A stretch of 64,000 nt of DNA from Squalus acanthias (lineage: Eukaryota), in contig CM059430.1 in assembly GCA_030390025.1 (NCBI GenBank), positions 39,804,001 through 39,868,000 on the forward strand, given 5' to 3'. The notes under the pieces were generated by a model. It searched no databases. It had not been told where the DNA came from and saw nothing but the letters and a program-made list of their open reading frames with translations. The position numbers were made by a program, and so were the translations under genes. Numbering within the stretch: the stretch's first letter is position 1; every line of letters begins with the position of its first letter. Below are positions 21,663-63,671 of this stretch, piece after piece.

Positions 21663-22334
21663 TTATTGTACGTATTCCTGCACTACTAGCTCTTTCAGTG
21701 AAGGCAGATTGCTTTGGCTTCCGTGTAGTTCCTCTAGGTCGGTCACCTTGCGTTGAAGGTGCTGCATGTTCTTGCCCAGCTCATTACCTAGAGTAATCTG
21801 AACCTTCAGCAAAGGGATAAGGTATTTGTGGCGACTGCAGTTATGCAAAATAATCCCACCTTTCTCACAAAATTGGTAGGCACCATCTATATTACCCAAA
21901 TCTCTGCAGCACACACTGATAGCACTGAGTGTAAGAACAAGCCGATCATAGTAACGCATATACAGTTTTTCCTGCAAACTAAATACATTCAGAAGAGTAT
22001 TCAAAGCTCTGGTATACTGTCCGCTTCGAAGGCAGCCATATCCTTCTCGCACCTCTGGTAGGAAGAAGAACTCAATAAATTCATCAGATTCACGGATATC
22101 TTTGATCGCATACAACTGTCTTAAATAGTCCGTGAACGCCAACTTGCGTTCAGCGATTTTCTCCTGCATGAAGTTCCCAGCCATGATTTTCTTTGGAAAA
22201 GTAATTTCTTCTATCTCTTCTTTAAAATTCTTCAAGATGTTTTTATGTAACTTTTCAAAGTCTGAGTATCGCCGTTCAATATAAGCTTGGCTGCCATCAT
22301 AGGTGCCAGATTTTATCACTACTACTTTGTACAT
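21663..22334 (-). CDS. SNX20: Sorting nexin 20, last coding exon (rest of PX domain plus C-terminal PXB/TPR-like region), 223 aa + stop
   Basis: Translation MYKVVVIKSGTYDGSQAYIERRYSDFEKLHK...FPKKIMAGNF...ERKLAFTDYL...GCLRSGQYTRAL...LQEKL...SLKELVVQEYVQ is colinear with the SNX20/SNX21 sequence as I recall it. A polypyrimidine tract and CAG acceptor (minus: ttttttcctccccag|ATG) lie immediately upstream of 22334, so this ATG is internal (phase 0). Confidence 0.93.
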   Translation of the reverse strand: MYKVVVIKSGTYDGSQAYIERRYSDFEKLHKNILKNFKEEIEEITFPKKIMAGNFMQEKIAERKLAFTDYLRQLYAIKDIRESDEFIEFFFLPEVREGYGCLRSGQYTRALNTLLNVFSLQEKLYMRYYDRLVLTLSAISVCCRDLGNIDGAYQFCEKGGIILHNCSRHKYLIPLLKVQITLGNELGKNMQHLQRKVTDLEELHGSQSNLPSLKELVVQEYVQ

Positions 22335-24404
22335 CTGGGGAGGAAAAAATACTGATCAGAACAGTTGTGAGTAATTTCAACTAATGGCACGTGTTTGATT
22401 AAAAAATAAAGAGATGCCATGGATACCCTTACAATGGTCTAAAGGTTAGTCAAACATTTCCACTCAGAGGGTACAATTTATTTTCTTTACTAGCTTTGGC
22501 ACTGGCCAATTTGGTGCAGCAGGAAGCAAAATTTGGATTCCGTTCGACAGCACAACACCTTTTGAGAATTTCAGATCCTTTTTTACATAAATACAATTCA
22601 GAAGCTCTACCCCACTGAGGTCTGTGGGATTTGTGTTATTAATTAAGGACTATGTTTTCCTCCCTCACTAATTTTAGCACAAAAATGGATGTGAATATAA
22701 AGCAGGGAACAGAATTAGCAAACGGAGGGAAATATTTCCCAAGGGCACTATTCCAATCTGCAATCTGAGCAAAGACCAAACTAAGAAATGGACTATTTTT
22801 TTAAGTCGAAGATTTCCCACACTTTCTTCCACCTGCACAGTTGTGGATTTCTGCAAATATTGTACTTTCACCTGGGGAGGAATAGAAGAATCACAAACAT
22901 GTTGGAAACATCTAGAATTGGAAACATCCAGAATTCAAACGCGATGGCAAAGAAACTGCACTAATACGTCACATGGGTATAGTCAGGCTGAAATGGAACA
23001 AAACTCTCGGAGCCAAAAGCAGTGGACCAATAGGAAGTTGTTGGCATGTTAATGAAGAAGGTCTACAAATGAGCTATAGAGTGAGATGTAACGATCACGT
23101 AGCAGCACATACACTAAGAATAGTTTAATTTGCTGCTCGGAATTTACACACAACATTGCAAGATTAGTATTCCTGATATCACAATCCTGTCAGGAGGGAA
23201 ATGTAATATTTGGGGATTTCTCTGATAGGAATATCATAGTTCAGTGTGAAATGAAGCAAAGCGTTTTTTCAAGAGTTTTTGTATTGTGATTAGACACAGT
23301 GTGAATATTTTAAACAAAATATTATGATTTCTACATTTTGATAATGATGAGAGCCTTTGGTAGCTTGGTGGCTAGAAGAATAGTGTTATCATCGAATGGG
23401 CTAGATTACCCACTCATTCAGAGTTGATGGGTGGAAAGTCAAGGGTTAAATCCTGTTGTAAATGTTCTTTTTAAACAGTAGTATCAAATATTTGTGGCAG
23501 ATTGAAAATCGAGCATGGAGTTACAATGACACTGACATTGAGGAGAGGAGTTATTTTCATTTGGACTGCAGAATATGTCAGCATCAAACAGGGACATAAA
23601 TTTGCATTTTTTCACAGGGTGACCCCCATCTAATAACACCTGTCAGCAGCCAGTCTTCCATGCCAAAATGTGGGCCATGAGTCATAGCAGCACCTATTGA
23701 GGTCATTATACGTATTTCCCTTTGAGTCCTCCAGCAGCAACATATCAAACATGAAGGTTTTTATGCAGCTGGCTTGCCTAATGTCCTGGGAAAAATCAGT
23801 TGCACATAAATAGCCCTCCATGCACCTTCTGGGATTGAACTAGTTTCTCGTAATTCAAGCCAGCTGGCCTTGGATATATAGGTTGCATGTTGTGGTTTGG
23901 GTAAAATTAAAAGTCCGGTTGCCAAATCTCCACAGCCGTGCTATAACTTAGATTTGACGGTGGGCGATTTTCAACTGGAACGCGCATTTGGCGGGAAGTG
24001 GGTTTCACTACACCTGCCCTGTGGCTCCAGCGAGAGGCCCAAACAATTTTCATGGTCGGGCCTTGTCTAAACATTTTGGGTGAGCTGCTGAATGTTTAGA
24101 AGCTGCTTTTGGACAGGCTCACCTGGATGTGTGCTGTTTGCACCCAATCTTTTCAAGGTCATCCATCCATTAGCTTTGCCCCAAGTGCAGATTTCGACAG
24201 GTGAAGGGACTAGTCATGGGAGTGAAATTTAAAGGGATGGAAGCAATTAAAGGAAAGTGACAGAATAGGGTGACAAAAATTCTGAACGATTTAGAAAGGT
24301 TCAAAAAGCTTCTCAGCTTTTGCCAACACTAAAGGAGAAGGGACTAAGAAACAACAGGCAGAAATTAAGGAAAAGGAAACCCAGGTGGTAGGTATGATTT
24401 GGAG

Positions 24405-27810: not shown

Positions 27811-30800
27811 GAATAACTAGGGCTGTAGAGTGGGCTTTAAACTAATTAGTGGGGGGGAGGTTTCAAGAGAGCAAAAAATAAAAATGTCAGCGGAGAAGGC
27901 AATAGAGCAAAGTAGCAGTGGGGTAATTAAAAACCAGAGTGTGTCAGGAAGGGACAGAATATATAAAGATAAAGGTAAAGTAGTAAAGGGGGTAAAAGCA
28001 GGAATAAATTGTCACAAAACATATTTAAAAGTTCTTTATCTGAATGCACGCAGCATTCGTAACGAAATAGATGAGTTGACGGTACAAATAACTACACATG
28101 GGTATGATCTGGTGGCCATTACAGAATCATGGCTGCAAGGTGACCATGACTGGGAACTAAACATATAGGGGTATTTGACTATTAGGAAGGACAGACAGGA
28201 AGGAAAGGGAGGTGGGGTGGCTTTGTTAATAAAGGATGGAATCACTGCAATAGTGAGAAATGATATGGGTCAAAGGATCAGGATAGTGAAACAGTTTGGG
28301 TGGAGATAAGGAATAATAAGGGGAAAAAGTCACTAGTGGGCGTAGTCTATAGGCCTCCTAACAGTTGCAACTCAATTGGTCGGAGTATTAATCAGGAAAT
28401 AGTTGGGGCTTGTAATAAGGGAACAGCTATAATCATGGGAGATTTTAACTTTCATATTGACTGGACAAATCAAATTGGGCAGGGCAGCCTTGAGGAAGAG
28501 TTCATAGAGTGCATTAGGGACGGGTTCCTTGAGCAGTATGTTACTGAACCAACCAGGGGGCAGGCAATCTTAGATCTGGTCCTGTGTAATGAGACAGGAT
28601 TAATAAAAAATGTCCTAGTAAAGGATCCCCTTGGAATGAGTGACCATAACATGGTTGAATTCCAAATTCAGTTGGAGGGTGAGAGAGTTGGATCTCAAAC
28701 CAGCGTACTAAGCCTAAATAAAGGAGACTATAAAGGTATGAGAGCAGAGTTGACTAAAGTGGACTGGGAAAATAAATTAAGGTGTAAGACGGTACAGGAG
28801 CAGTGGTGTACATTCAAGGAGGTATTTCGCAACTTTCAAGAAAAATATATTCCACTGAGGAAAAAGGGGCGTAAAAGAAAAGACAGCCATCCGTGGCTAA
28901 GTGAAGTAATAAAGGATAGTATCTGACTAAAAACAAGGGCTTATAAAGTAGCCAAATCTAGTGGGAGGATAGAAGATTGGGAAGCATTTAAAAACCAGCA
29001 AAGAATAACTAAAAGATTAATTAAGAAAGGGAAGATAGATTATGAAAGTAAACTAGCAAAAAATATAAAAACAGATAGCAAGAGTTTCTACAGTTATATA
29101 AAAAGAAAAAGGGTGGCTAAAGTGAATGTTGGTCCCTTAGAGGATGAGACCGGGAAATTAGTAGTGGGGAACATGGAGATGGCAAATATGCTGAACAAAT
29201 ATTTTGTATCAGTCTTTACAGTAGAGGACACTAAAAATATCCCAACATTGGACAAACAAGGGGCTATAGGGGGGGAGGAGCTAAACACGATTAAAATCAC
29301 TAAGGAGATGGTACTCGGTAAGATAATGGGACTTAAGGCGGATAAATCCCCATGATCTGATGGCTTACATCCTAGGGTCTTGAGAGAAGTTGCGGTAGGG
29401 ATTGCGGATGCATTGGTGGTAATTTTCCAAAACTCCCTGGATTCAGGAAAGGTCCCAGCAGATTGGAAAACTGCTAATGTAACACCCTTATTTAAAAAGG
29501 GAGGTAGACAAAAGGCTGGAAACTATAGACCAGTTAGCCTAACATCTGTGGTTGGTAAAATGTTGGAGTCCATTATTAAGGATGCGGTAACAGGACATTT
29601 GGATAAGCATAACTTAATCGGACAGAGTCAGCATGGTTTTATGAAGGGGAAATCATGCTTGACAAATTTGCTCGAATTCTTTGAGGACGTAACAAACAAG
29701 GTGGATAAAGGGGAATCAGTGGATGTGGTGTATTTGGACTTCCAAAAGGCATTTGACAAGGTACCACACAAAAGATTACTGCACAAGATAAAAAATCATG
29801 GGATTGGGGGTAATATACTGGCATGGGTGGAAGATTGGCTATCTAACAAAAAACAGAGAGTTGGGATAAATGGTTCATTCTCGGGTTGGCAATCAGTAAC
29901 TAGTGGTGTTCCGCAGGGGTCAGTGCTGGGACCCTAACTCTTTACAATCTATATTAACGATTTGGAGGAGGGGACCAAGTGCAATGTATCCAAGTTTGCA
30001 GACGATACAAAGATGGGAGGAAAAGCAGTGAGTGAGGAGGACATAAAAAACCTGCAAAAGGACATAGACAGGCTAAGTGAGTGGGCAGAAATTTGGCAGA
30101 TGGAATATAATGTTGGAAAGTGTGAGGTTATGCACTTTGGCAGAAAAAATCAAAGAGCAAGTTATTATCTAAATGGAAAGAAACTGCAAAGTGCTACAGT
30201 ACAAAGGGATCTGGGGGTCCTGGTGCATGAAACACAGAAGGTTAGTATGCAGGTACAGCAGGTGATCAGGAAGGCCAATGGAATCTTGGCTTTTATTGCA
30301 AGGGGGATGGAGTATAAAAGCAGGGAAGTCTTGCTTCAGCTATACAGGGTACTGGTGAGGCCACACCTGGAATACTGCGTACAGTTTTGGTTTCCATATT
30401 TAAGAAAAGATATACTTGCTCTAGAGGCAGTTCAGAGAAGGTTCACTCGGTTGATTCTGGAGATGAGGGGGTTGACTTATGATGAAAGGTTGAGTAGGTT
30501 GGGCCTCTACTCATTGGAATACAGAAGAATGAGAGGCGATCTTATCGAAACATATAAGATTGTGAGAGGGCTTGATCGGGTGGATGCGGGGAGGATGTTT
30601 CCACTGATGGGTGAGACTAGAACTAGGGGGCATAATCTTAGAATAAGGGGCTGCCGTTTCAAAACTGAGATGAGGAGAAACTTCTTCACTCAGAGGGTAG
30701 TAAATCTATGGAATTTGCTACCTCAGAGAGCTGTGGAAGCTGCGACATTAAATAAATTTAAAACGGAGATAGACAGTTTCCTAGCTGATAAGGGAATGAA

Positions 30801-30934
30801 GGGTTATGGGGAGCGGGCAGGGAAGTGGACGTGAGTCTAGGTTCGGATCAGCCATGATCCTATTGAATGGCGGAGCAGGCCCGAAGGGTCGTATGGCCTA
30901 CTCCTGCTCCTACTTCTTATGTTCTTATGTTCTT
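27811..30934 (+). mobile_element. CR1 LINE with nearly complete ORF2 (APE endonuclease + RT), several stops/frameshifts, 6-bp TSD
   Basis: YLNARSIRN...AITESW, MGDFN, SDHN, YLDFQKAFD, GVPQGSVLGP, FADD; (TTCTTATG)n tail; AATATT at 27805-27810 and 30935-30940. Confidence 0.95.
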
Positions 30935-30974: not shown

Positions 30975-33560
30975 CAACAACGACAGCAACAACAACTTGT
31001 ATTTATATAGTGCCTTTAACATAGTAAAACATCCCAATGCACTTCACAGGAATATTAAAAGACAAAAAATGTTGACATCGAGCCATATAAGGAGAAATTA
31101 GGGCAGGTGACCAAAAGCTTGGTCAAAGAGGTAGGTTTTAAGGAGCGTCTTAAAGGAGGAAAGAGAGGTAGCAAGGCAGCGAGGTTTAGGCAGGGAATTC
31201 CAGAGCTTAGGGCCTAGGCAACAGAAGGCCGCCCACCAATGGTTGAGCGATTATAATCAGGGATGCTCAAGAGGGCAGAATTAGAGGAGCGCAGATATCT
31301 CGGGGGGTTGTGGGGCTGAAGGAGATTACAGAGATAGGGAGGGGCGAGGCCATGGAGGGATTTGAAAACAAGGATGAGTATTTTGAAATCGAGACGTTGC
31401 TTAACGGGGAACCAATGTAGGTCAGCGAGCACAGGGGTGATGGGTGAACGGGACTTGGTGCAAGTTAGGACACGGGCAGCCAAGTTTTAGATGACCTCAA
31501 AGTTTACATAGGGTAGAATGTGGGAGGCCAGCCAGGAGTGCGTTGGAATAGTCTAGAGGCAACAAAGGCATGGGTTTCAGCAGCAGATGAGCTGAGGCAA
31601 GGGCGGAGATAGGCGATGTTACGGAGGTGGAAATAGGCGGTCTTAATTATGCTGCGGATATGTGGTTGGAAGCTCATTTCCGGGTCAAATATGACACCAA
31701 GGTTGCGAACAGTGTGGTTCAGCCTCAGACAGATGCTAGGGAGAGGGATGGAGTCAGTGGCTAGGGAAAGAAGTTTGTGGCGGGGTCCGAAAACAATGGC
31801 TTCGGTCTTCCCAATATTTCATCGGAGAAAATTTCTGCTCATCCAGTACTGGATGTCGGACAAGCAGTCTGACAATTTAGAGACCGTGGAGAAGTTGAGA
31901 GAAGTGGTAGTGAGGTAGAGCTGGGTGTCGTTAGCGTACATGTGGAAACTGACGCTGTGTTTTCAGATGATGTCGCCAAGGGGCAACATGTAGATGAGAA
32001 ATGGGAGGGGGCCAAGGATAGTTCCTTGGGGGACACCAGAGGTTACGATGCAGGAGCAGGAAGAGAAGTCGTTGCAGGTGATTCTCTGGCAATGATTAGA
32101 TAGATAAGAATGGAACCAGGTGAGTGCAGTCCCACCCAGCTGGATGACAGTGGAAAGCGTTGGAGAAGGATGGAGTGGTCAACCATGTCAAAGGCTGCAG
32201 ACAAGTCAAGAAGAATGAGGAGGGATAGTTTACCTTTGTCACAGTCACAAAGGATTTCATTTGTGACTTTGATGAGAGCCATTTTGGTACTGTGGCAGGG
32301 GCGGAAATCTGATTGGAGGGATTCAAACATGGAATTGCGGGAAAGATGGGCACGGATTTGGGAGACAACAACACGTTCAAGAACTTTGGAGAGGAAAGGG
32401 ATGTTGGAGATGGGGCAGTAGTTTGCAAGGATGGAGGGGTCAAGGGTTGGTTTTTTGAGGAGAGGAGTGATGACGGCAGATTTGAGGGAGAGGGGGACAG
32501 TACCTGAGGAGAGAAAACCGTTAACAATGTCAGCTAACATAGGAGTCTGAAAAAGAAGTTGGGTGGTCAGCAATTTGGTGGGAATAGGGTCGAGGGAGCA
32601 GGAAGTAGGTCTCATGGCCAAGATGAGTGCAGAGAGGGCATGAGGGGAGATCGGAGAGAAACTGGAGAAAGATGTGAGTTCAGGGCTAGGGCAGGGGGGA
32701 CCTTAGAGGAAGTTTGGCCCGGTGGGCTAGGGGAAGGAAGGGAAGTGGCAGAGGCAGCTGAATGGATGGTCTCAATCTTAGAGACAAAGAAGTCCATAAG
32801 GGTAAGGTGTCATCACCCCTCAACCAAGTTTCCGTCAGGGCATGATGTCGAAGCAATCATCCACAATAAACTCATGGATGGCAAGGGCTTTGTTCACAAG
32901 AAAACGGACATTCTGGAGGGAGATGTGGAGAGGGTCGGTGATGGCTGCCCCACTGCCAGCGTCCACAGGGTCAGCGCTGGTGGGGGGGATGAGTTGGATG
33001 GGGAGGAGATTGTCAAGATTTGCCCCCAGTGGCCGCGCTAGATGGGAAGGTCTGCGAGAGAGTAGGATGGGACAGTTGGGGTTGCTGCTCGTAAGGCGGC
33101 AGCGACGAGTGCCTCGATGGGCCCTTCGTAGGATGCCAAGAGAGGCACAGAGGGAAGCTGTGGGCTTATCTAAGAGGGAGTCAAGCCTGGGGCGGTGGCA
33201 GGAGAGCAGGAAGGTCGAAGAGTAATGAAGGATTGGGGTAGGGATTTGGGAGGGCAGAGTATCCGAGAGAGGAGAGATGAAAGGAGGCATGACGACAGGA
33301 GAGTGCGGTCAGGGAGGGATAGAGAGAAAAGGAAAATAGGGGGAAAAGTGGAAAAGTATTAATTGGCTCAGGTCCGGAGCGGCAGCCAAAGTGCGCACGT
33401 GAATGGACATGGGAAAAGCTCAGGTTACATAGGCCTGTTTAAATGTAATAATTAATGGAATACATATTTTCTGGTACCAGGGAATAAGTTGGAGACAATA
33501 GTAGGAAGACCAAGGTCAAAGTCAGAGGTCCCATGGAGGGACAAAGCCGACGTAAGCAGG
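30975..33560 (-). mobile_element. L2 LINE retaining its 5' region, with a large internal deletion near 32797; 5-bp TSD
   Basis: N-terminal LGILRRAHRGTRR...ISLQNVR..VNKA; RT LDPIPT...LLDLSAAFD; LHWFPVKQRLDFKIL; (GTT)n tail; ATTCA at 30970-30974 and 33561-33565. Confidence 0.9.
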
Positions 33561-36037: not shown

Positions 36038-39000
36038 TTTTTTTTTTTAATTCATTCGTGGGATGTGGGCGTCGCTGGCAAGGCCAGCATTTATTGCCCA
36101 TCCCTAGTTGCCCTTGAGAAGGTGATGGTGAGCCGCTTTCTTGAACCGCTGCAGTCCGTGTGGTGAGGGTACTCTCACAGTGCTGTTAGGGAGGGAGTTC
36201 CAGGATTTTGACCCAGCGACGATGGAAGAAAAGTGATAGATTTCCAAGTCAGGATGGTGTGTGACTTGGAGGGGAACATGGAGGCGGTGGTGTTCCCATA
36301 CGCCTGCTGCCCTTGTCCTTCTAGGTGGTAGAGGTCGCGGGTTTGGAAAGTGCAGCCGAAGAAGCCTTGGCGAGTTGCTGCAGTGCATCTTGTAGATGGT
36401 ACACACTGCAGCCACGGTACGCCAGTGGTGGAGGGAGTGAATGTTTAAGGTGGTGGATGGGGTGCCAATCAAGTGGGCTACTTTGTCCTGGATGGTGTTG
36501 AGCTTCTTGTGTTGTTGGAGCTGCACTCATCCAGGCAAGTGGAGAGTATTCCATCACACTCCTTACTTGTGCCTTGTAGATGGTGGAAAGGCTTTGGGGA
36601 CTCAGGAGGTGAGACACTCGCCACAGAATACCCAGCCTCTGACCTGCTCTTATTGCCACAGTATTTATGTGGCTGGTCCAGTTAACTTTCTGGTCAATGG
36701 TGACCCCCAGGATGTTGATGGTGGGGGAATCGGTGATGGTAATGCCCTTGAATATCAAGGGGTAGTGATTAGACTCTCGCTTGTTGGAGATAGTCATTGC
36801 CTGGCACTTGTGTGGCGCGAATGTTACCTGCCACTTATCAGCCCAAGCCTGAATGTCGTCCAGGTCTTGTTGTATGCGGGCATGGACTGCTTCATTATCT
36901 GAGGAGTTGCAAATGGCACTGAACACTGTGCAGTCATCAGTGAACATTCCCATTTCTGACCTTATGTTGGAGGGAAGGTCACTGATGAAGCAGCTGAAGA
37001 TGGTTGGGCCTAGGACACTGCCCTGAGGAACTCCTGCAGCGATGTCCTGGCTGAGAGGATTGACCTCCAACCACCACAACCATCTTCCTTTGTGCTAGGT
37101 ATGACTCCAGCCAGTGGAGAGTGTTCCCCCCGATTCCCATTGACTTCAGTTTTACTAGGGCTCCTTGATGCCACACTCGGTCAAATGCTGCCTTGATGTC
37201 AAGGGCAGTCACTCTCACCTCACCTCTGGAATTCAGCTCCTTTGTCCATGTATGGACCAAGGCTGTAATGAGGTCTGGAGCCGAGTGGTCCTGATGGAAC
37301 CCAAACTGGGCATCAGTGAGCAGGTTATTGGTGAGTAAGTGCCGCTTGATAGCATTGTCGATGACACCTTCCATCACTTTGCTGATGATTGAGAGTAGAC
37401 TGATGGTGTGGTAATTGGCCGGATTGGATTTGTCCTGCTTTTTGTGGACAGGACATACCTGGGCAGTTTTCCACATTGTCGAATAGATGCCAGTGTTGTA
37501 GCTGTACTGGAACAGCTTGGCTAGAGGCGCGGCTAGTTCTGGAGCACAAGTCTTCAGCACGTCAGCCGGGATGTTGCCGGGGCTCATAGCCTTTGCTGTA
37601 TCCAGTGCGCTCAGCCGTTTCTTGATATCATGTGGAGTGAATCGAATTGGCTGAAGACTGGCTTCTGTGATGGTGGGGACCAGAGGAGGAGGCCAATTGT
37701 GATCATCCACTCGGCACTTCTGGCTGAAGATGATTGCAAATGCTTCAGCCTTGTCTTTTGCACTCACGTGCTGGGCTCCACCATCATTGAGGATGGGGAT
37801 ATTCATGGAGCCTCCTCCTCCCGTTAGTTGTTTAATGGTCCACCACCATTCACGACTGGATGCGGCAGGACTGCAGAGCTTTGATCTGATCCATTGATTG
37901 TGGGATCGCTTAGCCCTGTCTATAGCATGCTGCTTCCGCTTTTTAGCATGCATGTAGTCCTGTGTTGCAGCTTCCCCAGGTTGGCACCTCATTTTTAGAT
38001 ACACCTGGTGCTGCTCCTGGCATGCTCTTCTACACTCCTTATTGAACCAGGGTTGGTCCCCTGGCTTGATGGTAATGGTAGAGTGAGGGATATGCTGGGC
38101 CATGAGGTTATAGATTGTGGTGGAATACAATTCTGCTGCTGCTGATGGCCCACAGCGCCTCATGGATTCCCAGTTTTGAGCTGCTAGATCTGTTCTGAAT
38201 CTGTCCCATTTAGCACAGTGGTAGTGCCACACAACACGATGGAGGGTGTCCTCAGTGTGAAGATGGGACTTCATCTCCACAATGACTGTGCGGTGGTCAC
38301 TGCTATCAATGCTGTCATGGACAGATGCATCTGCAACAGGTAGATTGGTCAAGTAGGTTTTTCCCTCGTGTTGGTTCTCTCACCACCCGTCGCAGGCTCA
38401 GACTGGCAGCTATGTCCTTCAGGACTCGGCCAGCAGTGGTGCTACCAAGCCACTCTTAGGTGATGGACATTGAATCCCCCACCCAAAATACATTCTGTGC
38501 CCTTGCTACTCTCAGTGCTTCTTCCAAGTGGTGTTCAACATGGAGGAGTACTGATTCATCAGCTGAGGGAGGGCAGTAGGTGGTAATCAGCAGGAGGTTT
38601 CCTTGCCTATGCTTGAGAGTTCATGGGGTCCAGAGTCAATGCAAGGGCCACTCCTTCCTGACTGTATACCACTGTGCCACCACCCTGGTGGGTCTGTCCT
38701 GCCGGTGGGACAGGACATACCCAGGGATGGTGATGGAGGAGTTTGGGACATTGGCTGAAAGATATGATTCTGTGAGTATAACTATGTCAGGCTGTTGCTT
38801 GACTAGTCTGTGAGACAGCTCTCCCAATTTTGGCACAAGTCCCCAGATGTTGGTGAGGAGGACTTTGCAGGGTTGACTGAGCTGGGTGTGCCATTGTCGT
38901 GTCCGTAGCCAGTGCCGAGGTCGATGCCGGGTGGTCCGTCCGGTTTTATTCTTGTAGCAGTTTGTTACAACTGAATGGCTTGCTAGGCCATTTCAGAGGG

Positions 39001-44126: not shown

Positions 44127-44458
44127 AGGTATTTATCCTGGGATCATGTTTTCAAAAATGTAAACATTAGTTATGTTATGATCAATATCTTTTAATTTAA
44201 TGAGCTGTGAAACATTTCAGCTACAAATTCTCTATGGTCTACTCTCTTCTTCTTAAATATTTTCTTATGAATATTTATCAGCTTCAGATTTTCTTAAATG
44301 GCCATTTTGTTACTAATTTGTATTTTCTCCAAGAATTTAAAAATGCATCTCTTACCTTTTATATGAGTCATGATGTGGAGATGCCGGCGTTGGACTGGGG
44401 TGGACAAAAATGAGAAGTCGCACAACACCAGGTTATAGTCCAACAGATTTATTTAATT

Positions 44459-44496
44459 TTACAAGCTTTCGGAGCTGTCGCTCCTTCCTCAGGTAA
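44459..44496 (-). ncRNA. Hammerhead motif (family B), inverted copy
   Basis: Mirror copy with a perfect stem II, GGAGC-GACA-GCTCC. Confidence 0.72.
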
Positions 44497-44793
44497 GTTA
44501 GCAGTGAGAGAATCTCCCAGAATTCACAATTTAAACACAGACAAAATCTATTCAAATATTACCCTACATCAAAGACACACTAAGAGCACAGCCAAGACAA
44601 TGAGATGTGTCCCAGGGGGTCCAACGTGTCAAACCACCTGCTGGCTGCATATCCTGTCAATTTGTGTTGGTTTCTTGTGTTAGTCTTTTTTAAAAAAAAC
44701 ACCTGGGAAGACCGGCCATGATGTCAAGTCACGTTCTGTATCGTGACATGAACCCGATATCGCGATTGAGGCCATCCTCATGAGTGCCAAATC

Positions 44794-45183
44794 ATGGACA
44801 CAGATACCATCATCACACATGAGGACACTACCCACCAGGTACACGGTACATACTCATGTGACTCGGCCAACGTTGTCTACCTGATACGTTGCAGTAAAGG
44901 ATGCTCCAGAGCATGGTACATCGGCGAGACCATGCAGACACTGAGACAACGTATGAACGGACACCGCGCAACAATCGCCAGGCAGGAGGGTTGCCTCCCA
45001 GTCGGGGAACACTTCAGCAGCCAGGGGCATTCAGCCTCGGATCTGCGGGTAAGCGTCCTCCAAGGCGGCCTTCGGGATACACAACAGCGCAAAATCATAG
45101 AGCAGAAACTGATAGCCAAGTTCCGCACTCATGAGGATGGCCTCAATCGCGATATCGGGTTCATGTCACGATACAGAACGTGA
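44794..45183 (+). CDS. GIY-YIG endonuclease domain of the Penelope-like element (truncated ORF C-terminus)
   Basis: SCDSANVVYLIRCSKGCSRAWYIGETMQTLRQRMNGH...VGEHF...RKIIEQKLI...GLN: VVY/YIG, conserved R, H, E, N and Cys/His ligands. RT is absent and the Met is probably not the true start. Confidence 0.85.
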   Translation: MDTDTIITHEDTTHQVHGTYSCDSANVVYLIRCSKGCSRAWYIGETMQTLRQRMNGHRATIARQEGCLPVGEHFSSQGHSASDLRVSVLQGGLRDTQQRKIIEQKLIAKFRTHEDGLNRDIGFMSRYRT

Positions 45184-45415
45184 CTTGACATCATGGCCGG
45201 TCTTCCCAGGTGTTTTTTTTTAAAAAGACTAACACAAGAAACCAACACAAATTGACAGGATATGCAGCCAGCAGGTGGTTTGACACGTTGGACCCCCTGG
45301 GACACATCTCATTGTCTTGGCTGTGCTCTTAGTGTGTCTTTGATGTAGGGTAATATTTGAATAGATTTTGTCTGTGTTTAAATTGTGAATTCTGGGAGAT
45401 TCTCTCACTGCTAAC

Positions 45416-45453
45416 TTACCTGAGGAAGGAGTGACAGCTCCGAAAGCTTGTAA
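45416..45453 (+). ncRNA. Minimal type I hammerhead ribozyme motif (family B) in the pLTR
   Basis: TTAC-CTGAGGA-A-GGAGT-GACA-GCTCC-GAAA-GC-TT^GTAA; stem I TTAC/GTAA; palindromic AGCT. Confidence 0.72.
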
Positions 45454-45848
45454 AATTAAATAAATCTGTTGGACTATAACCTGGTGTTGTGCGACTTCTC
45501 ATTTTTATATGAGGACTTTGATTAAGCAGGTGGTGATGAGTAAGTCTGATTATGCAGCATCGGACTTAGAGATCTAAAACATTAAGCTGACTGACACATT
45601 GCAAACTGCCCTGTGTAAGTCCTACCAGGTTGAAGGCAGATGTCTGTCTAATAGTTGATGTGCAAAACTTGGTATGCAGGCATTGGATACCATTAAATGG
45701 GAGCTGCATGTGTGATTGTGCACTAATATAGCCAGGGTTCTGTGCCAACCTTGATTAGGTTGTGGAGAGCCAAACAATTACTGCTTAAGCTCCATACTTT
45801 TGACTGATGACTATCATTTATGTTCATGTTGTGCTCAGATGTTATGCT

Positions 45849-48530: not shown

Positions 48531-48567
48531 AGTTCTGACGAAAGGTCATCGACCTGAAACGTTAACT
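48531..48567 (+). ncRNA. Minimal type I hammerhead motif (family A), copy 1 of tandem pair
   Basis: AGTT-CTGACGA-A-AGGTC-ATC-GACCT-GAAA-CG-TT^AACT. Confidence 0.72.
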
Positions 48568-48776
48568 CTCTTTCTCTCTCCACGGATGTTGTCTGGCCTG
48601 CTGAGTTTTTCCAGCGTTTTCTGTTGTTATTTCGGATTTCCAGCATTCGCAGTATTTTGCTATCATATCTCTTAATGTCTCTTAATGTCTCTTAATCCCC
48701 CCTTTGTTCCTTTATCCCCTCCCCCTTTTCCCAGCTTTATCCTGGCCTTAAATCTATTTGATTTCCGGCTCTTTCC

Positions 48777-48813
48777 AGTTCTGACGAAAGGTCATCGACC
48801 TGAAACGTTAACT
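48777..48813 (+). ncRNA. Minimal type I hammerhead motif (family A), copy 2 of tandem pair
   Basis: Identical to 48531-48567. Confidence 0.72.
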
Positions 48814-51427
48814 CTCTTTCTCTCTCCACGGATGTTGTCTGGCCTGCTGAGTTTTTCCAGAGTTTTCTGTTGTTATTTTAGATTGATCCCCAGCCTGTGC
48901 TGCATTAGCTTGTCTCAACGGGAGCAGGGAGCTACAATTGAACTCAATGATCTTGAGCTAGAGAGGGAAACTATTTGCCAGACTTCCCACTTATGATATC
49001 CAGTGACCCCTAGTGGAAAATATGCATGTATGGGCACCTACTGAAGGTGAGAGTGGGCGCAGCCCCGATAACCTGATACTCTAGTAGCCCTTTGAGACTC
49101 TCATCAAAAGAAGCCATTTGGATGTGTTGCCAGAGGGCTACCGGCACACACAGAACTATACACTGGTCTGAGGTCAGTACCTTCAAAAAGGGAAAAAGGG
49201 AGAAAATGGGGAAAAAAATACTATTCTGGGTGTAGTGGGAACCTTTTTTTTAAAAAATTGGATTAGGATAAAAGACATTTATATATAAAGAAAAAGATTG
49301 TAATCAGTCTTATAACATTTAATATGGATGCAGAAAGCTGCAGTAAAGAAAATGCCACAAGACACTGCAATTTTTTAAAAAACCTTTAGACACCAACTTA
49401 AACACCGTTACACAGTAGCAAGTGCTGCTACATGTGAAATGTTACCATTAAGCCTGTGAAACTATTGCAATTGCCTTTTAAAAATAGTACAGGATTCCAT
49501 TCTCTTTGGAAAAAAATATACACCTGTAGTCAAGTAGCTATTAATTACATAGTACAAAGACAAATCTCCATATTAGCCATATGTGCAAAATATTGGTTTG
49601 GCAAATAGTGTAGTAAAGCCACAATTTTATTTTGATAAAACAGGCTCCATTAGTTCATACTATAGCTCTCATTGAAGCAATGGAAAAATGACTTACTAAA
49701 CTGTGGGAGAACATAAACCAATCATAATCGCATTTGTAAGAGTCATTCTAAAACAGACACTATTAGCAGTAAATTATTTTTCTTTAATTTCTGGAAAATA
49801 TTTAGTTATTAGTAATTTCACTACATGCATGACTATTACCCACACGTGAAAATGACAGTTTAAAATGACACTCAAGTGTCCATCCGAAGTAACATGCCCA
49901 TAAAATAAATCTAAGATCTCACTAGTCACTGCAAGTTCCAGATATCCTGCCACTGCCATAAATGAGACATCTCTGTACAGCTCAAAGCTATGGGGCCCTC
50001 CCACGCACGACAAAACTGCTATAACTCACTAGTTCAGTAAAATTTCTTCAAAATATATTTAACAGCCCAAAATATATTAAACAGCCCAAAAGAGGACAAA
50101 TGGGAGCAAGTCTGTATATTGTAAACACTGTGGGGGGGAAGGAACATTGAAACCTTGAATTATTTTAATGCAGTATATACACATTATTGCAGTCTACAAA
50201 ATAGGAAGCACTGAGTTCGAAGCATGAACTAACCTTCAATGTCTGAATTTCTTCCTGGAGTTCAAAGCAGACTCGGACTTTGCAACTATTGTGATCTTAG
50301 AAGTAAACAACTGAAGTACGTTCCCAGCTTTACATAACTGAAACACATTTCGGTGGATGCATGCAGTTATGATAAAGACACTGTGGTTTACATGATTGGA
50401 AGAAAGACAGAAGCTATGTCCTGTTACTCTAAACTAATTACCTCCTGTAAGGGAGGAGTTTATGCAAAGTGAGAATGTTCTTTAGCAGATTTTTTAAAGG
50501 GACACTGTATCCATTCAAAATGTTTGCAAACCAAATTTTTGTATGTGGAGGGAGTAGAGACAGGAGGCATTTGCATCATTTTTTGTTACATGTTCAAGTG
50601 GCATGATAATTAGTTTGAGGAAACCTCCATCATCATATGTGTTTCTAAAGAAAACAAAGACGTTAATCAAACACTCTTTCAGGATCTGATGATATCCTTT
50701 TAAATGCACAATATCTTTGGGAAATCTTATTTGGGGCAGAAATATAGAAGACTCATAGGTCTTTGCAGTTATTTTTCAACTGATGAAAGCCCAGTTTTTT
50801 AACATAATAGAATCTGTTCAATGGCTTTGATTCTGGGTGAGGGAACACTGCCCCCTTGCCTTGTTCTTTGCTCCAGCAATAATTTTCACAGACCTGCTGA
50901 CAGCATTTAGTGACACTTCATATTGTGTAAGGGTTATTAAATCCGTTGCTTATGGAAATACCCTAGTATGACTTCTAAATTAAGAACACAATAAAAAGGC
51001 TCAAAACAGGCAATTTTTCATCTAAAATACACCCACATACAAGATAGAACAGCTGCACATTTTGAAAGCAAACACCTAAAACTTCTGTGGGTTTTCAGTG
51101 ATATCAAACATAAGAGGAAGTACCAGGCCATGATCAAAACTTTCAATTTTTGACTAATAAAACATTTTATAAATAGATGCTATGACTAATTTATCCATTT
51201 TTCAGATGAGACATTAAACCAAGGCCCTATCTGCTCTCTCGGGTGGACATGAAAGATTCCAATCACACTAGTCGAAGAGAAGGGGAGTTCTCCCGGTGTC
51301 CTGGCCAACATTTATCTGTCAACCAACATCATTAAAACAGATTATTTGGTTATTTGTCTCATTGCTATTTGTGGGACTTTGCTGTGTGCAAATTGGTTGC
51401 CACGTTGCTCTATATTACAACAGTGAC

Positions 51428-51621
51428 TGTCGTAAGAATGAGCCTTACGCGTGGTGAACTTAAAGTAAGCTTTAATCAACTAAAAAGGTGCTACATACAA
51501 AAGAGGTCTTACTCTATGCCTCTCCAGGATCCAACTGCTCAGTCCAGTATTTATCCTGGACTAATCACAGGAAGTGATGCAATAAAGTTCGAGTCACAGG
51601 AAGCTGTATTGTGTTACCACA
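51428..51621 (-). repeat. 3' LTR
   Basis: No difference from 55645-55838 seen on base-by-base reading. Confidence 0.95.
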
Positions 51622-51639
51622 TTCTCCCCCCCCAAAAGA

Positions 51640-54600
51640 TTAGGAGGCCGGGATGCTCCCTCCATTTCGTAGCCGCCGGACGAGGGAGAGCCGCACCCGT
51701 TTGGGTTCTCGTAGTGGTAGAGGGCCCCTAGCCCGTTTACCCGCCGCGGGCCGTGGACCAGAGTCCGAGTGATCCAGCCCGCTCTGTGAGGGGTCAGGAC
51801 GATCCTGACTGTGTACTGGTGCCCGAACGGGTGTCGGGCAGGGCTGTGGCAGATCCGTTTCCGAGCGTATGGTACGGGGTGGATCGTGGCTGCGCGTGCG
51901 AGCCCCGACGGGCTCATAGTCAGTCTGCCCCAGGTCGGCACGCTGGAGTGAGGTACCAGCCGGCGTCAGATCCAGATCGTGATGAGAGGCACCTGGCGAG
52001 CCCAGAGATGTGCCTGGTACAATATCATCCCCTGGTGTCCCTCTATGTTTCGGCGGGCAGGGAGCCAGATCCCGCAATGACACGGTAGATTCCCGACCGT
52101 CAGGATACCGAATATAGGCGTAGGTAGGGTTGACGTCAGTGAGCTCAACCTCATCTACCAGGGGGTCATTCTTAGACGCCCGGACATATCTTCGGAGTAG
52201 CACTGGTCCCGGTGCAGTCAGCCACGACGGGAGAGATATCCCATAGGATGAGCGACGCTGAAATCGGAAGAACCGTTCATGAGGCGTCGTATTTGTGGCG
52301 GTCGAAAGGAGGGACCGTGTGGAGTGTAATGCGTCTGGAAGTACTGCTTCCCATTGCTGGTTGGGTAGGCCCCGAGATCTCAAAGCCAGACGTACCGCAT
52401 TCCAGATGATAGCGTTAAAACGCTCGACTTGCCCATTCCCGACCGGATGATAAGGCGTCGTTCTGCTGGCAGCAATACCCCGTTCCGAGAGATAGGCCTT
52501 GAGTTCTCCTGACATAAAAGAAGGGCCCCGATCCGAATGAACATAGGATGCCATGCCACAGAAAGCAAATACCTGCTCAAGGCAGCTGATAACCGTGGTC
52601 GTCAGCATATTGGGGCAGGGAAAGGCAAACGGAAAACGGGAATACTCATCGACCATGGTCAACAGATAAGTGTTGCGAGTTGAAGAGGGCAACGGCCCCT
52701 TAAAATCGATGCTAAGCCGTTGCATTGGCTGGGTCGCATGTATGAGTATACCACCCGAGGGGCGGAAAAACTGAGGTTTCAATTCTGCACAGACTCTGCA
52801 GTCCGAGCACATCTTCTTTACATCCCCGGTAGAGAATGGGAGATTTCGGGACCGCACGAAGTGTAGCATGCGAGTAACGCCCGGATGACACAACCCATCA
52901 TGGATGTCTACGAGCGTAGAGGGTGCCATGGCGGAGCAGAATGCTCGTGTGAGGGTATCCGGAGCCACATTCTCCTTGCCAGGTCGATAGTGGATGGTGT
53001 AACCAAAAGAGGCCAATTCCAGCCGCCAAAGCTGGATTTTATTATTTTTAATTTTGGTCCGTTTTCGATTATCGAGCATGAAGGCGACCGATCGCTGGTC
53101 CGTGATTAAGGTAAAGTGCTGGCGAGCTAGGAGATGAGTCCACTTCCGTACTGCCTCTATGATGGCTGTAGCTTCTTTCTCGACTGGAGCTCAGCCCCTT
53201 GAAAAGTCCTGGACAAAAATGCCACCGGACGACCTTCCTGATTCAGAGTGGCCGAGATCGCCACCTCCGAGGCATCACACTCAACAACAAAAGGAAGACT
53301 CTCATCGATGGAGTGAAGAGCCGCTTTCTCCAACTGTTTTTTCAGGAGGTTAAAGGCTGCAACAGCCGCTGTGTCTTCAGTAGAGGTTGGATTCGGTCCG
53401 AGAAGTTAGGAATCCATTTAGCATAGTATGCAAACAGGCCGAGGGCCCGGCGCAAGGAGGCCGGATTCTTAGGTGGCGGGAGCTCTTGGAGTGGGCGAAG
53501 CCTTTCAGGGTCAGGTTTAATGATGCCATTGCCCACACAATAGCCAAGGATGTTGATGGTTGGTTGTGACTCAATGGATTTAGCCGCATTTAATGTCAAA
53601 TTACGGTGCTGGAGTGCATCCCAAAATCGTTGGAGATTGGCGTCATGTTCCCGCTGATTGCGACCTGTGACAGTAATATTGTCCAGATAAGGAAACGTAT
53701 CCTTCAAGTCTTCCTGTTTGACCAGGTCATCCATTGCTCGCTGGAAGACAGCCACTCCATTAGTGACCCCAAAGGGGAGGCGACGAAATTGATACAGCCG
53801 TCCATTGGCTTCAAAGGCCGTATACTGCTTGTCTGAGACCTTCAAGGGTACCTGATGATAGGCACTTTTCAGATCATATGTTGAGAACACCGTGTACTCA
53901 GCCAGTTTATTAACCATATCATCGATGCGCGGCAATGGGTATGCGTCCAAGTCCGTATATTGATTGATGGTCTGTGAATAGTCAATGCACAGCCGTTTCT
54001 TGTGAGGTTGTAGAGGGTTCTTAACAATAACGACCTGGGCGCGCCATGGTGACGAACAAGGCTCGATGATATCCTCTGCTAAAAGCCGAGAAATCTCAGC
54101 CGCAATAAAAGACTGGTCTTCCTGACTGAAACGTCGTGACTTTGTTATAATCGGTTTGCATCGAGGAGGGATACTGGTAAACAGTGAGGGTTCATCCAGT
54201 GAAGCTGCTGACAATGCACAGAACAGTAATCGAGGTCGTATATTAGAAATAGTGAGTTCAGGTTTGGATCCGCCGAACTCAATGGTGAGCTTCTTATGCT
54301 GCTTTTGAAAATCCAGCCCTAAGATAAGATCACTACATAAGTCCTTGAGCACCGAAAGCCGGGTGGAGGGATACCTGTGACCATTAAGTGTTATTTCAAC
54401 CATACAAAAGCCAGAAATTCTGGTATTAAGTGATGACTGAGCCATCGCAATTGCCTGGTCCGATGGGAAAACATGTAGCTTTAACTCTGCAACAATCTGT
54501 TCCCTAATGAAACTATCAGTGCTACCTGAGTCAATTAAGGCATCTAAAGTATGTCCATTAATTGATGCTTTTGTAGCTGCATGGAATAGGTTCTGAGGAC

Positions 54601-55567
54601 AAGCAGCTGTAATTGGTGTCGTTGCACAAAGAGTGGCTGAAACTCTAGGTGTGTTTCTTCGAGAGAAAACCCGAGAGGAAGCATGATAGATTTTAGCCGG
54701 AACATCTTGATAGGCCCTTACCGGGGCAGTTCGGTAGGACTTAGCTTGATAAGCCCTCGTAGAGGCTCTTGATAGGCAAACCTTTGCAAAATGACCCTTT
54801 TTGTTGCAATGACTGCAAAACGCATTGCGAGCAGGGCAGAATTTCCGAGGGTGAAACTCATCACCACAAAAGAAGCATTTCTTAGATTGCCAAGAGGCTG
54901 CCACAGTGGGGTCATCATCCTCTTCATCAGTGAAGTCATCAGATTGATCGTCAGGGATAAAGTCCTCCCTAATAGAGTTCACCTGTGGCCTCTTAAATTG
55001 CCTGACTGTAGTTAAGGCAGCAGACCGAGGTCTGGGCACTGTATAAAGGTCTGCATTTCTTTTTGCCAGATCTAGAGAGCAAGCCATGTCATAAGCTCTC
55101 TGAAGCTCAAGTGTCTTACTTTCCAGTAGATGCTGGCGTATAAATGGGGAGGCAAGCCCGCAGATGAAAGCATCACGGATCATTTCTTCACGGTACAGCT
55201 CAGCTGAGGCCGCCTGAAAGTTACAGTCCATACTAAGTCTGCGAAGCTCTTGGAGGAATTTATCAATGGATTCCTCCGGCCCTTGTTGGGCTGTAGCTAG
55301 TCGATGTCTGGCATAGACCTCATTCGGTGTCTTAGTATATAGTTTTTTAAGCGTCCGAATTGCCTCCTCGTAACTGCCCCATTCCTCAACATACTGAAAT
55401 ACATTCGGAGTGACACAGTTGATGAGTATCCGCAACTTTGTGTCATCATCAGCCTTGCAATGTTCGAGAAAATTGTCAAACGTGCGATATCAGTGTTTCC
55501 ACACCTTACCGGCTGCTGGGGTGTTTGGGTCCAAGTCAAGACGCGATGGTTTAAGGATGTTTTCCAT
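51640..55567 (-). pseudogene. Single gag-pol polyprotein with one stop and two frameshifts
   Basis: ATG at 55567 (MENILKPSRLDLDPNTPAAGKVWKH*YRTF, TGA at 55490-55492); two CCHC knuckles; protease LIDSGS; RT DLKSAYHQ/LPFG/YLDN; RNase H VECDAS...EKEA...TDQRS with frameshifts near 53371 and 53187; integrase HHCC + D,D,E. Confidence 0.92.
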
Positions 55568-55644
55568 GATGGGTGATTCCCTGGATCCTTAGTTCCGAGT
55601 TCGTCCAAAAAGTTTGAGTGCGAAGTTTTCAAAGTTGATTAAAT

Positions 55645-55838
55645 TGTCGTAAGAATGAGCCTTACGCGTGGTGAACTTAAAGTAAGCTTTAATCAACTAA
55701 AAAGGTGCTACATACAAAAGAGGTCTTACTCTATGCCTCTCCAGGATCCAACTGCTCAGTCCAGTATTTATCCTGGACTAATCACAGGAAGTGATGCAAT
55801 AAAGTTCGAGTCACAGGAAGCTGTATTGTGTTACCACA
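55645..55838 (-). repeat. 5' LTR
   Basis: See 3' LTR; contains two TCACAGGAAG repeats, GATAAATA and ATTAAA on the minus strand. Confidence 0.95.
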
Positions 55839-56332
55839 GTGACTACACTTCAAAAGTATTTAATTGGCTGTGATGTCGAGGTTGTTGGAGATTTTTTTTA
55901 ATTTAAAAAATAACTTTTTCTTTCTGTTTCATTTTTCTCTCTTCATCCAATCTTTCTTTCCTTCTCTTTATTTTTCTTTCTGTACCTGATTTGACATTGA
56001 ATTCACCCACTCTAACTTACACTTCCTTGTTCAGACCTTGCGCTGTTCATTTCACAATCCTTGAATCTGGTTGGTTAAGGAAATACCCAGTTGCTTGCCC
56101 TTTTCACACAGATCCCAGATGCCCTGTAGAGGGCGCCGCGCCATTCCCATCTCACACTTCCAGCAACATGCAGGGCAAAATATCGTCAACATTAATTGGG
56201 CAAGGGCAAGTCTAACTAACAGCGGGTGCTGTTCGTTGGCCTGCCACAGCAATTTTTGTGCCAATATCACCAGGTGCTCAGTTGCTGTGTTGTGTTCTCT
56301 TTTTCTTTGGCTAAAAAGCCTGCCAACACTTA

Positions 56333-61097: not shown

Positions 61098-63671
61098 TAT
61101 ATTAACTGGACAAATCAAATTGGGCAGGGCAGCCTTGAGGAAGAGTTTATTGAGTGTATTAGGGATGGATTTCTTGAGCAGTATGTAACTGATCCTACAA
61201 GGGGGCAAGCAACCTTGGACCTGGTCCTGTGTAATGAGACAGGATTAATTAATAATGTCCTAGTTAAGGATCCCCTTGGAATGAGTGACCATAACATGGT
61301 TGAATTCCATATCCAATTAGAGGGTGAGAAGGTTGGTTCTCAAACAAGCATACTGAGCTTGAATAAAGGAGACTATGATGGTATGAGAGCGGAATTGATT
61401 AAAGTGGACTGGGAAAATAGATTAAAGGGTAAGACGGTACATGAGCAGTGGTGTTCATTTAAGGAGTTATTTTACAACTTTCAAAAAAAATATATTCCAC
61501 TGAGGAAAAAAGGGTGTAAAAGAAATGACAGCCATCCGTGGCTAAGTAAAGAAATTAAGGATAGTATCCGACTAAAAACAAGGACATATAAGGTAGCCAA
61601 ACTTAGTGGGAGGATAGAAGATTGGGAAGTCTTCAAAAGACAGCAAAAAGTAACTAAAGGATTGATTAAGAAAGGGAAGATAGATTATGAAAATAAATTA
61701 GCAAAAAATATAAAAACAGATAGCAAGAGTTTCTATAGTTATATAAAAAGAAAAAGGGTGGCTAAGGCAAACGTAGGTCCCTTAGAGGATGAGACCGGGA
61801 AATTAATGGTGGGAAACATGGAGATGGCAAAAATGCTGAACAAATAGTTTGTTTCAGTCTTTACGGTAGAGGACACTAAGAATATCCCAACACTGGACAA
61901 ACAGGGGGCTCTAGGGGGGGGGAGGAGCTAAATACGATTAAAATCACTAAGGAATTGGTACTCAGTAAAATAATGGGACTCAAGGCGGATAAATCCCCTG
62001 GACCTGATGGCTTACATCCTAGGGTCTTGAGGGAAGTGACAGTAGGGATTGTGGATGCTTTGGTAATAATTTTCCAAAATTCCCTGGACTCAGCAAAGGT
62101 CCCGGCAGATTTGAAAACTGCTAATGTAACACCCTTATTTAAAAAGGGTAGTAGGCAGAAGGCTGGAAATTATAGACCAGTCAGCCTAACATCTGTGGTG
62201 GGTAAAATTTTGGAGTCTATTATTAAGGAGACAGTAACGGAACATTTAGATAAACATAATTTAATAGGACAAAGTCAGCATGGCTTTATGAAGGGGAAGT
62301 CATGTCTGACAAATTTGCTTGAGTTCTTTGAGGACATAACGTACAGGGTGGATAAAGGGGAACCAGTGGACGTAGTGTATTTAGACTTCCAGAAGGCATT
62401 CGACAAGGTGCCACATGAAAGATTATTGCTCAAGATAAAAAATCACTGGATTGGGGGTAATATTCTGGCATGGGTGGAGGATTGGTTATCTAACAGGAAG
62501 CAGAGAGTTGGGATAAATGGTTCATTCTCGGACTGGCAACCAGTAGCCAGTGGTGTTCCGCAGGGATCGGTGCTGGGTCCCCAACTCTTTACAATCTATA
62601 TTAACGATTTGGAGGAGGGGACCGAGTGTAACATATCAAAGTTTGCAGATGATACAAAGATGGGAGGGAAAGTAGAAAGTGAGGAGGACATAAAAAACCT
62701 ACAAGGGGATATAGACAGGCTGGGTGAGTGGGCGGAGATTTGGCAGATGCAATACAATATTGGAAAATGTGAGGTTATGCACTTTGGCAGGAAAAATCAG
62801 AGAGCAAGTTATTATCTTAATGGCGAGAAACTGGAAAGTACTGCAGTACAAAGGGATCTGGGGGTCCTAGTGCAAGAAAATCAAAAAGTTAGTATGCAGG
62901 TGCAGCAGGTGATCAAGAAGGCCAATGGAATGTTGGCTTTTATTGCTAGGGGGATAGATTATAAAAACAGGGAGGTATTGCTGCAGTTATATAAGGTATT
63001 GGTGAGACCGCACCTGGAATACTGCATACAGTTTTGGTGTCCATACTTAAGAAAAGACATACTTGCTCTCGAGGCAGTACAAAGAAGGTTCACTCGGTTA
63101 ATCCCGGGGATGAGGGGGTGGACATATGAGGAGAGGTTGAGTAGATTGGGACTCTACTCATTGGAGTTCAGAAGAATGAGAGGCAATCTTATTGAAACAT
63201 ATAAGATTGTGAAAGGGCTTGATCAGGTGGATGCGGTAAGGATGTTCCCAAGTATGGGTGAAACTAGAACTAGGGGGCATAATCTTAGAATAAGGGGCTG
63301 CTCTTTCAAAACTGAGATGAGGAGAAACTTCTTCACTCAGAGGGTAGTAGGTCTGTGGAATTTGCTGCCCCAGGAAGCTGTGGAAGCTACATCATTAAAT
63401 AAATTTAAAACAGAAATAGACAGTTTCCTAGAAGTAAAGGGAATTAGGGGTTACGGGGAGCGGGCAGGAAATTGGACATGAGGCTGAGTTCGGATCGGTC
63501 AAGGCCCTGTGGGTGGCGGAGCGGGCCCAGGGGCTGAGTGGCTGGGTCCTGCTCCTACTTCTTGTGTTCTTTAGATCTGAGGTTAGGATCAGATCAGCCA
63601 TGATCTTATTGAATGGCGTAGCAGGCTCGAGGGGCCGATTGGCCTACTCCTGCTCCTAGTTCTTATGTTCT
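61098..63671 (+). mobile_element. CR1 LINE, 5'-truncated, RT intact (ORF 61955-63481)
   Basis: Close relative of 27811-30934; TAG at 61845-61847 and a G-run frameshift near 61915; duplicated 3' tail. Confidence 0.95.

Follow-up and report, generated by a model that had tools for sequence, protein, structure and literature searches.

A Ty3/Gypsy retrotransposon of Squalus acanthias carries a primer-binding site that is complementary to a segment of its own long terminal repeat (LTR), and in the clade to which the element belongs this pairing is widespread and is maintained by two-sided changes. To judge from these sequences, the element very probably primes its reverse transcription with its own RNA in some form, and it probably does so with the first 11 bases of that RNA, in the manner of Tf1. 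The proposal made in a preliminary description of this DNA, that a vertebrate element primes itself, is therefore well supported, both by the covariation found throughout the clade and by the TGG primer sites of other Gypsy elements in the same genome. The element lies in a stretch of 64,000 nt (assembly GCA_030390025.1, contig CM059430.1, positions 39,804,001 to 39,868,000), here called the window, and all positions given below without a further label refer to it. The features of the element are listed in Table 1.

Table 1. Features of the self-complementary Gypsy element, given in the direction of its sense strand
Feature	Position in the window	Strand	Remark
Target-site duplication, 5 nt, copy before the 5' LTR	55839..55843	-	
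5' LTR, 194 nt, TG...CA	55645..55838	-	100% identical to the 3' LTR
TATA-like GATAAATA, 67 nt upstream of the segment	55765..55772	-	
Two UGUA motifs upstream of the hexamer	55709..55716	-	
Initiator-like TTAGTT, +1 A being the first base of the segment (55698)	55695..55700	-	1 mismatch to TCAKTY; putative transcription start
11-nt LTR segment complementary to the primer site	55688..55698	-	putative self-primer, likely transcript nt 1-11
ATTAAA, candidate poly(A) signal within the primer segment	55688..55693	-	
Short stem right after the putative cut, GCTTA/TAAGT in the window	55675..55687	-	
Hairpin near the LTR end	55648..55666	-	not conserved in the clade
Unpaired A separating the LTR end from the primer site	55644	-	opposite G at 55687
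Primer-binding site, non-tRNA type, 1 nt past the LTR end	55633..55643	-	
Region of gag, protease, RT, RNase H and integrase	52018..55567	-	homology stops at 52018
Polypurine tract, precedes the 3' LTR	51622..51633	-	
3' LTR, 194 nt	51428..51621	-	
Segment and poly(A) hexamer, copy in the 3' LTR	51471..51481	-	no adjoining primer site
Target-site duplication, 5 nt, copy after the 3' LTR	51423..51427	-	

The element spans 55838 to 51428 on the minus strand. Its LTRs with TG and CA ends, its target-site duplication, its polypurine tract and its domain order identify it as a Ty3/Gypsy element (Metaviridae). Protease, RT, RNase H and integrase were all recognised by Pfam and are arranged in Gypsy order, and among solved structures the RT was closest to that of Ty3 (E 1.7e-37). 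The window copy shows an in-frame stop early in gag (55490-55492), and its frame is broken near 53370 and near 53185, around RNase H; many genomic copies have a single open frame that runs for about 1,320 codons. In the S. acanthias genome the family is abundant and very young. A first look at the 3.7 Gb of this genome gave 1,398 candidates for the window LTR, and the same segment and primer site were present at the junction in all of the 30 best genomic copies. Three junctions of LTR and primer site were also observed at a spacing of exactly 4,247 nt (G000:C1:566479-575212), which is likely a head-to-tail tandem array with LTRs in common between its units. Elsewhere in the window, fragments of LINE-type endonuclease and RT were found at 28264-30834, 32043-32702, 36321-38379 and 61880-63481, and an open frame with a PX domain on the minus strand at 21663-22355 is probably a host exon. 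An inverted repeat of 382 nt, with 99% complementary arms lying 337 nt apart, occupies 44406-45506, and a 106-nt repeat adjoining it recurs in inverted orientation at 48531-48884.

On the minus strand, the 5' LTR ends in ACGACA and is followed by a single A (55644) and then by TTTAATCAACT (55633-55643), in agreement with the preliminary description. A TGG could not be detected near the LTR end, the first one being located 38 nt downstream. As had also been described, TTTAATCAACT is the exact reverse complement of AGTTGATTAAA (55688-55698) within the LTR, and the two enclose a loop of 44 nt. When the region 55625-55705 was folded, this duplex was the minimum-energy structure (z = -3.57), and none of 200 shuffled sequences was as stable. 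The arms of the additional hairpin reported near the LTR end were found in place, although this hairpin is not kept in the clade. Two GGATCC palindromes, one in the LTR (55744-55749) and one in the leader (55583-55588), are predicted to pair with each other. The frequency of such complementarity was estimated by counting matches of at least 11 nt that start within 4 nt. This test was passed by 64 of 118,652 other 25-mers of the window (5.4e-4) and by 87 of 200,000 shuffles of the LTR, and host DNA following 3' LTRs yielded matches of just 3-8 nt in 56 of 56 loci.

A protein search yielded 125 homologues, with identities of 35-69% among the 120 listed, and the hosts named were cnidarians, crustaceans, insects, molluscs, an echinoderm, a nematode, a rotifer relative and cartilaginous fishes. 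These homologues are known here from protein only, and primer sites were examined in DNA loci. With an alignment of 65 sequences as the query, 80 of 570 confirmed metagenome loci and 11 loci on genome contigs were obtained; a further 40 loci were taken from the S. acanthias genome, and an LTR pair was present in 61 of 132 loci. Viral contigs yielded no relatives. The start of gag is included in 46 of the 91 outside loci, and 44 were testable, having sufficient upstream DNA. In 37 of these 44, the bases lying 1 nt after the CA formed at least 10 of 12 Watson-Crick pairs with an upstream segment. The seven misses include two decayed members of a paired family (L042 and L075), one locus with a deletion within its 5' LTR (L073), one with a 13-nt match shifted by an insert (L101) and one outside the clade with TGG directly after CA (L119). 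The remaining two, L041 and L067, fall inside the clade, are unmatched and show CA-A-TGG before gag (at L041:1-30, and in the printed leader of L067 at about 240 nt). They may be truncated or deleted copies, and tRNA priming inside the clade is a possible explanation; L041 groups with butterfly and silkmoth proteins. Four clade members (L111, L113, L116 and L117) were located on contigs labelled as bacterial genomes and are likely to be animal host DNA binned with bacteria.

The 37 paired outside loci and seven S. acanthias loci were grouped into 22 clusters, each represented by its best-paired member or, in its own cluster, by the window copy. L084 is a close sister of L079 and, like L071, appears to be either decayed or out of register. 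Counted from the 3' end of the segment, positions 1-11 pair in 20-22 of the 22 clusters and positions 12-16 in 20, 18, 16, 15 and 10, and pairing is at background from position 17 onward. A primer length of 11 nt is not the rule, as pairing often extends over 12-16 nt. Three or four types of base pair occurred at positions 5, 7, 8, 9 and 12, and the clusters contain 18 distinct 11-nt primer sites. The circularity of segments picked by their complementarity was offset by a free search of each primer site against the LTR of every cluster. The primer sites formed 11.7 of 12 pairs with their own LTR versus 8.5 with the LTRs of other clusters, a result reached in 0 of 100,000 permutations, although this figure and the backgrounds overstate independence because the representatives are the best-paired members and the clusters are related. 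L040 and L045 are 99.1% identical in gag, and L045 carries a single base change in both LTR segments together with the complementary change in the primer site. The covariation that the preliminary description had proposed to look for could thus be observed across the clade. An origin by chance or as an artefact of local duplication, for which the AT-rich sequence might speak, is extremely improbable; the low frequency of matches within the window argues against it, and the pairing with two-sided changes in the outside relatives refutes it.

A readable LTR end was available in nine of 20 other Gypsy loci of S. acanthias, and all nine had TGG within 5 nt; the self-match at these TGG sites was 3-7 nt in the seven for which it was computed. 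In a quick RT tree, which held the clade and the TGG-site controls and no Tf1 or sushi sequence, 44 rows were placed on a long branch apart from the controls, with a support of 100 (SH-aLRT only). A young Gypsy family of S. acanthias (L214, L215 and L217) has a 224-nt LTR that ends in AAAA, not CA, and is followed by a TGG primer site.

A sister family in S. acanthias has its exact primer site in 114 places. Of its 30 best copies 28 could be parsed, 25 of them being fully paired and three showing a one-sided change. Five places (L282-L286, on C1, C73 and C3504 of G000) share a primer site with two mismatches to the LTR; they represent four distinct insertion sites, and L284 and L285 have flanks in common. 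The spread of this mismatched sublineage indicates that perfect pairing is not strictly needed. Such copies would also be in keeping with a primer of the same sequence supplied from elsewhere, either from the 3' LTR copy at the far end of the RNA or from a short transcript terminating early within the 5' LTR, and trimmed to its AAA; the segment occurs in both LTRs and has an AAA end in most clusters. The loop, however, is confined to 36-56 nt across the clusters and a stem is found right at the junction, both of which fit local folding, and there is no second poly(A) hexamer upstream that would end an RNA at the AAA. A supply from elsewhere is thus quite unlikely, and pairing of the segment with the primer site of the same 5' junction is the preferred reading.

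To locate the transcript start, the initiator consensus TCAKTY, as given in the available portion of PMC3601003, was compared with the LTRs. With its +1 placed on base 1 of the segment, the consensus was matched with at most two mismatches in 17 of 22 clusters (upstream background 14.5%) and with at most one in 8 of 22 (upstream background 2.8%); among 24 offsets, the runner-up reached 10 and 3, respectively. Within the segment, base 2 is G in all 22 clusters and 18 of them have A as base 1; a T-rich run lies upstream. This placement of the initiator-like motif suggests that transcription starts at the segment, as in Tf1, although the motif could instead reflect constraint by the duplex. A plain test for a pyrimidine-purine start did not single out position 11. 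The T-rich run with the AG also resembles a splice acceptor. Splicing inside the LTR was rejected as an explanation: the candidate intron would measure about 33 nt, it is the unspliced sequence that the primer site matches, and the A of the AG is a T in 4 of 22 clusters. One raw-read RNA run of those consulted gave 0 reads on the element and one contig run also gave 0; two other runs consisted of contigs, which do not reveal transcript ends, and in four further contig runs, a type of data that loses rare variants, no substitution was observed in the segment or the primer site.

The preliminary description had suggested, on account of the TATA-like GATAAATA, that the primer may lie inside the transcript. 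This motif was confirmed at its position, where it occupies the loop of a perfect hairpin (GTCCAG/CTGGAC, 55759-55778), but the position is not conserved in the relatives. If transcription began about 30 nt after GATAAATA, the segment would have to prime while still joined to a leader of about 45 nt. The S. acanthias families do have TATA-like motifs 84-102 nt before the 3' end of the segment, and the frequent pairing over more than 11 nt would likewise be compatible with an internal primer. No TATA-like motif at a shared distance could be detected among 33 loci, however, the initiator-like motif sits on base 1 of the segment, and pairing never exceeds 17 nt. A long leader would also be expected to leave an unmatched tail in the plus-strand strong-stop DNA and so hinder the second strand transfer. 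An internal primer is therefore not favoured and appears unlikely, and a primer formed by the 5' end of the RNA is preferred.

At the other end of the segment, the following base and the LTR spacer form a Watson-Crick pair in 0 of 22 clusters. The first four bases of the loop, mostly RCCT, pair with AGGY to open a short stem in 12 of 20 clusters, compared with 4.2 expected, and none of 13 other start positions gave stems above expectation; in the S. acanthias families, GCTT with AAGT replaces RCCT with AGGY. As the pattern was spotted after the folds had been viewed, this junction stem is regarded as a lead only. Folding of the loop, which holds the U5 hairpin of the preliminary description, reached z below -1.65 in just 2 of 20 clusters in a crude shuffling test.

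The overlap of the primer segment with a poly(A) hexamer, another point of the preliminary description, was supported. The ATTAAA at 55688-55693 is the sole AATAAA or ATTAAA on the sense strand of the LTR, and 15 of 22 clusters have one of these hexamers in the segment, as do 15 of the 17 whose segment ends in TAAA (background 0.14). Owing to this enrichment, the overlapping poly(A) signal is likely to be genuine. The hexamer is absent from the segment in 7 of 22 clusters, which keep the duplex nonetheless, and one of these has AATAAA in the loop instead. UGUA occurs within 45 nt of the segment in only 7 of 22 clusters. If transcription starts at the segment, the hexamer of the 5' LTR would lie 6 nt from the cap as well as inside the duplex, either of which could prevent early polyadenylation, and the UGUA motifs of the window family would be transcribed only at the 3' LTR; masking of the 5' hexamer by the duplex may thus be redundant.

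Masking of a 5' poly(A) signal by structure occurs in retroviruses. Given this precedent and the enrichment of AWTAAA in the segment, the duplex might be purely regulatory, hiding the 5' signal or serving in packaging, with a tRNA fragment or another host RNA acting as the primer. The comparison with host tRNAs covered 48 genes of four isotypes, which leaves room for such a primer; the best complement was 7 nt in genes of normal length and 8-9 nt in two over-long intron predictions. A purely regulatory role is nevertheless very unlikely, as the duplex begins exactly 1 nt past the LTR end, where priming must start, as it is retained in the clusters that lack the hexamer, and as 18 different primer sites are hard to reconcile with conserved host RNAs.

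In the proposed mechanism of self-priming from the 5' end, transcription would start at or a few bases from 55698, on the initiator-like motif, and the first bases of the RNA would fold back onto the primer site. Cleavage of the RNA would follow, between the last A (55688) and 55687, next to the conserved mismatch and the short stem. This cut could be made by the RNase H of the element, as in Tf1; an RNase H domain was found in the element by Pfam, and its part in releasing the primer is proposed by analogy. Extension of the new 3' end by RT across the 44-nt loop would yield a short strong-stop DNA. The ATTAAA of the 3' LTR would terminate the RNA inside the loop, which would give an R region of about 30-40 nt. 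During plus-strand synthesis the primer would serve as the template from which the primer site is remade, and this proposed step could explain why segment and primer site change together.

According to the available text of PMC7175516 and PMC4600332, the first 11 bases of Tf1 RNA pair with the primer site, and cleavage by RNase H separates base 11 from base 12. In Tf1 and Tf2 of Schizosaccharomyces pombe, in Tj1 of S. japonicus and in the Tf1/sushi group, the primer site is likewise complementary to an LTR segment and not to a tRNA, and the likeness of this group to the window element extends to the 11-nt core and the single gag-pol frame. In the portions of the sources available, Tf1/sushi elements are classed as chromoviruses (10.1101/2022.12.06.519325) and self-priming is described for them from fungi to vertebrates (PMC6317226; 10.1101/2022.12.06.519325). 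The earlier reservation that self-primed animal Gypsy elements might already be catalogued is thus borne out in so far as vertebrate Tf1/sushi elements have been reported, but the window element does not appear to belong to that group. Tf1/sushi elements have a chromodomain at the C-terminal end of their integrase, whereas neither a chromodomain nor Pfam SH3_Tf2-1 could be detected in the 18 relatives scanned (of 125) or in either window frame (E 0.01 / 0.001). Tf1/sushi elements also form a 'pretzel' of three duplexes around the primer site, whereas the clade shows no evident flanking duplexes and has a short stem after the cut instead; folding of the loop, and a duplex between the loop and the sequence after the primer site, each gave z below -1.65 in 2 of 20 clusters by crude shuffling. 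A further difference is that in 15 of 22 clusters the primer shares bases with a poly(A) hexamer. With neither chromodomain nor pretzel, membership of the clade in Tf1/sushi is not supported. Twenty SH3_Tf2-1 loci considered as chromovirus outgroups were left out, having given eight weak RT matches (22-28%), two of them with YVDD, and no LTR pair. The loci L162-L168, which show weak RT matches with YVDD in two, are likely endogenous retroviruses.

Self-priming has also been predicted by sequence complementarity for plant Tcn1 (Ty3/gypsy) and for the TAR lineage (Ty1/copia; Houba, Osr-1), the latter showing that self-priming has more than one origin, according to the available part of PMC6317226. 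These are plant lineages, however, TAR being Copia and Tcn1 a relative of Tf1/sushi. Other LTR elements without TGG, namely Skipper with a polypyrimidine site and fungal GalEa with a conserved hairpin site (PMC5006619, PMC5445492), are described in the accessible text with no LTR segment complementary to the site, in contrast to the window element. Cigr-1, MolGy1-16, PolGy1-4 and LGF2/LGF4 are non-chromovirus animal Gypsy clades known, from the parts of the sources available, by RT/RNase H trees (PMC6238403, PMC8556966, PMC8220671), and the clade studied here may be one of Cigr-1, MolGy, PolGy or LGF. The terms PBS, primer and tRNA had 0 matches in the accessible text of PMC6238403 and PMC8556966, and that of PMC8220671 contains general mentions only. 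Within the portions available, PMC5006619, PMC5445492, PMC3587641 and PMC10886601 likewise contain no such signature for an animal non-chromovirus clade. No description of the priming of the clade was encountered in the literature searched, a scope that lies outside Repbase, GyDB and most subscription journals. The self-priming signature is a variant of a known mechanism, found in a lineage that this literature does not tie to that mechanism.

To our knowledge, self-primed reverse transcription has been worked out in detail only for Tf1 of fission yeast, and we know of self-priming among Gypsy elements only as a mark of the Tf1/sushi chromoviruses. As the S. acanthias family is young and abundant, it should be possible to measure its RNA ends and strong-stop DNA in tissue of the host. 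If the reading presented here is true, a compact and widespread animal clade without a chromodomain would indicate either a separate origin of self-priming or a trait that is older. Annotation that demands a tRNA primer site would miss self-primed elements. Such elements would be independent of host tRNA, and they would presumably escape silencing by tRNA-derived fragments directed at primer sites.
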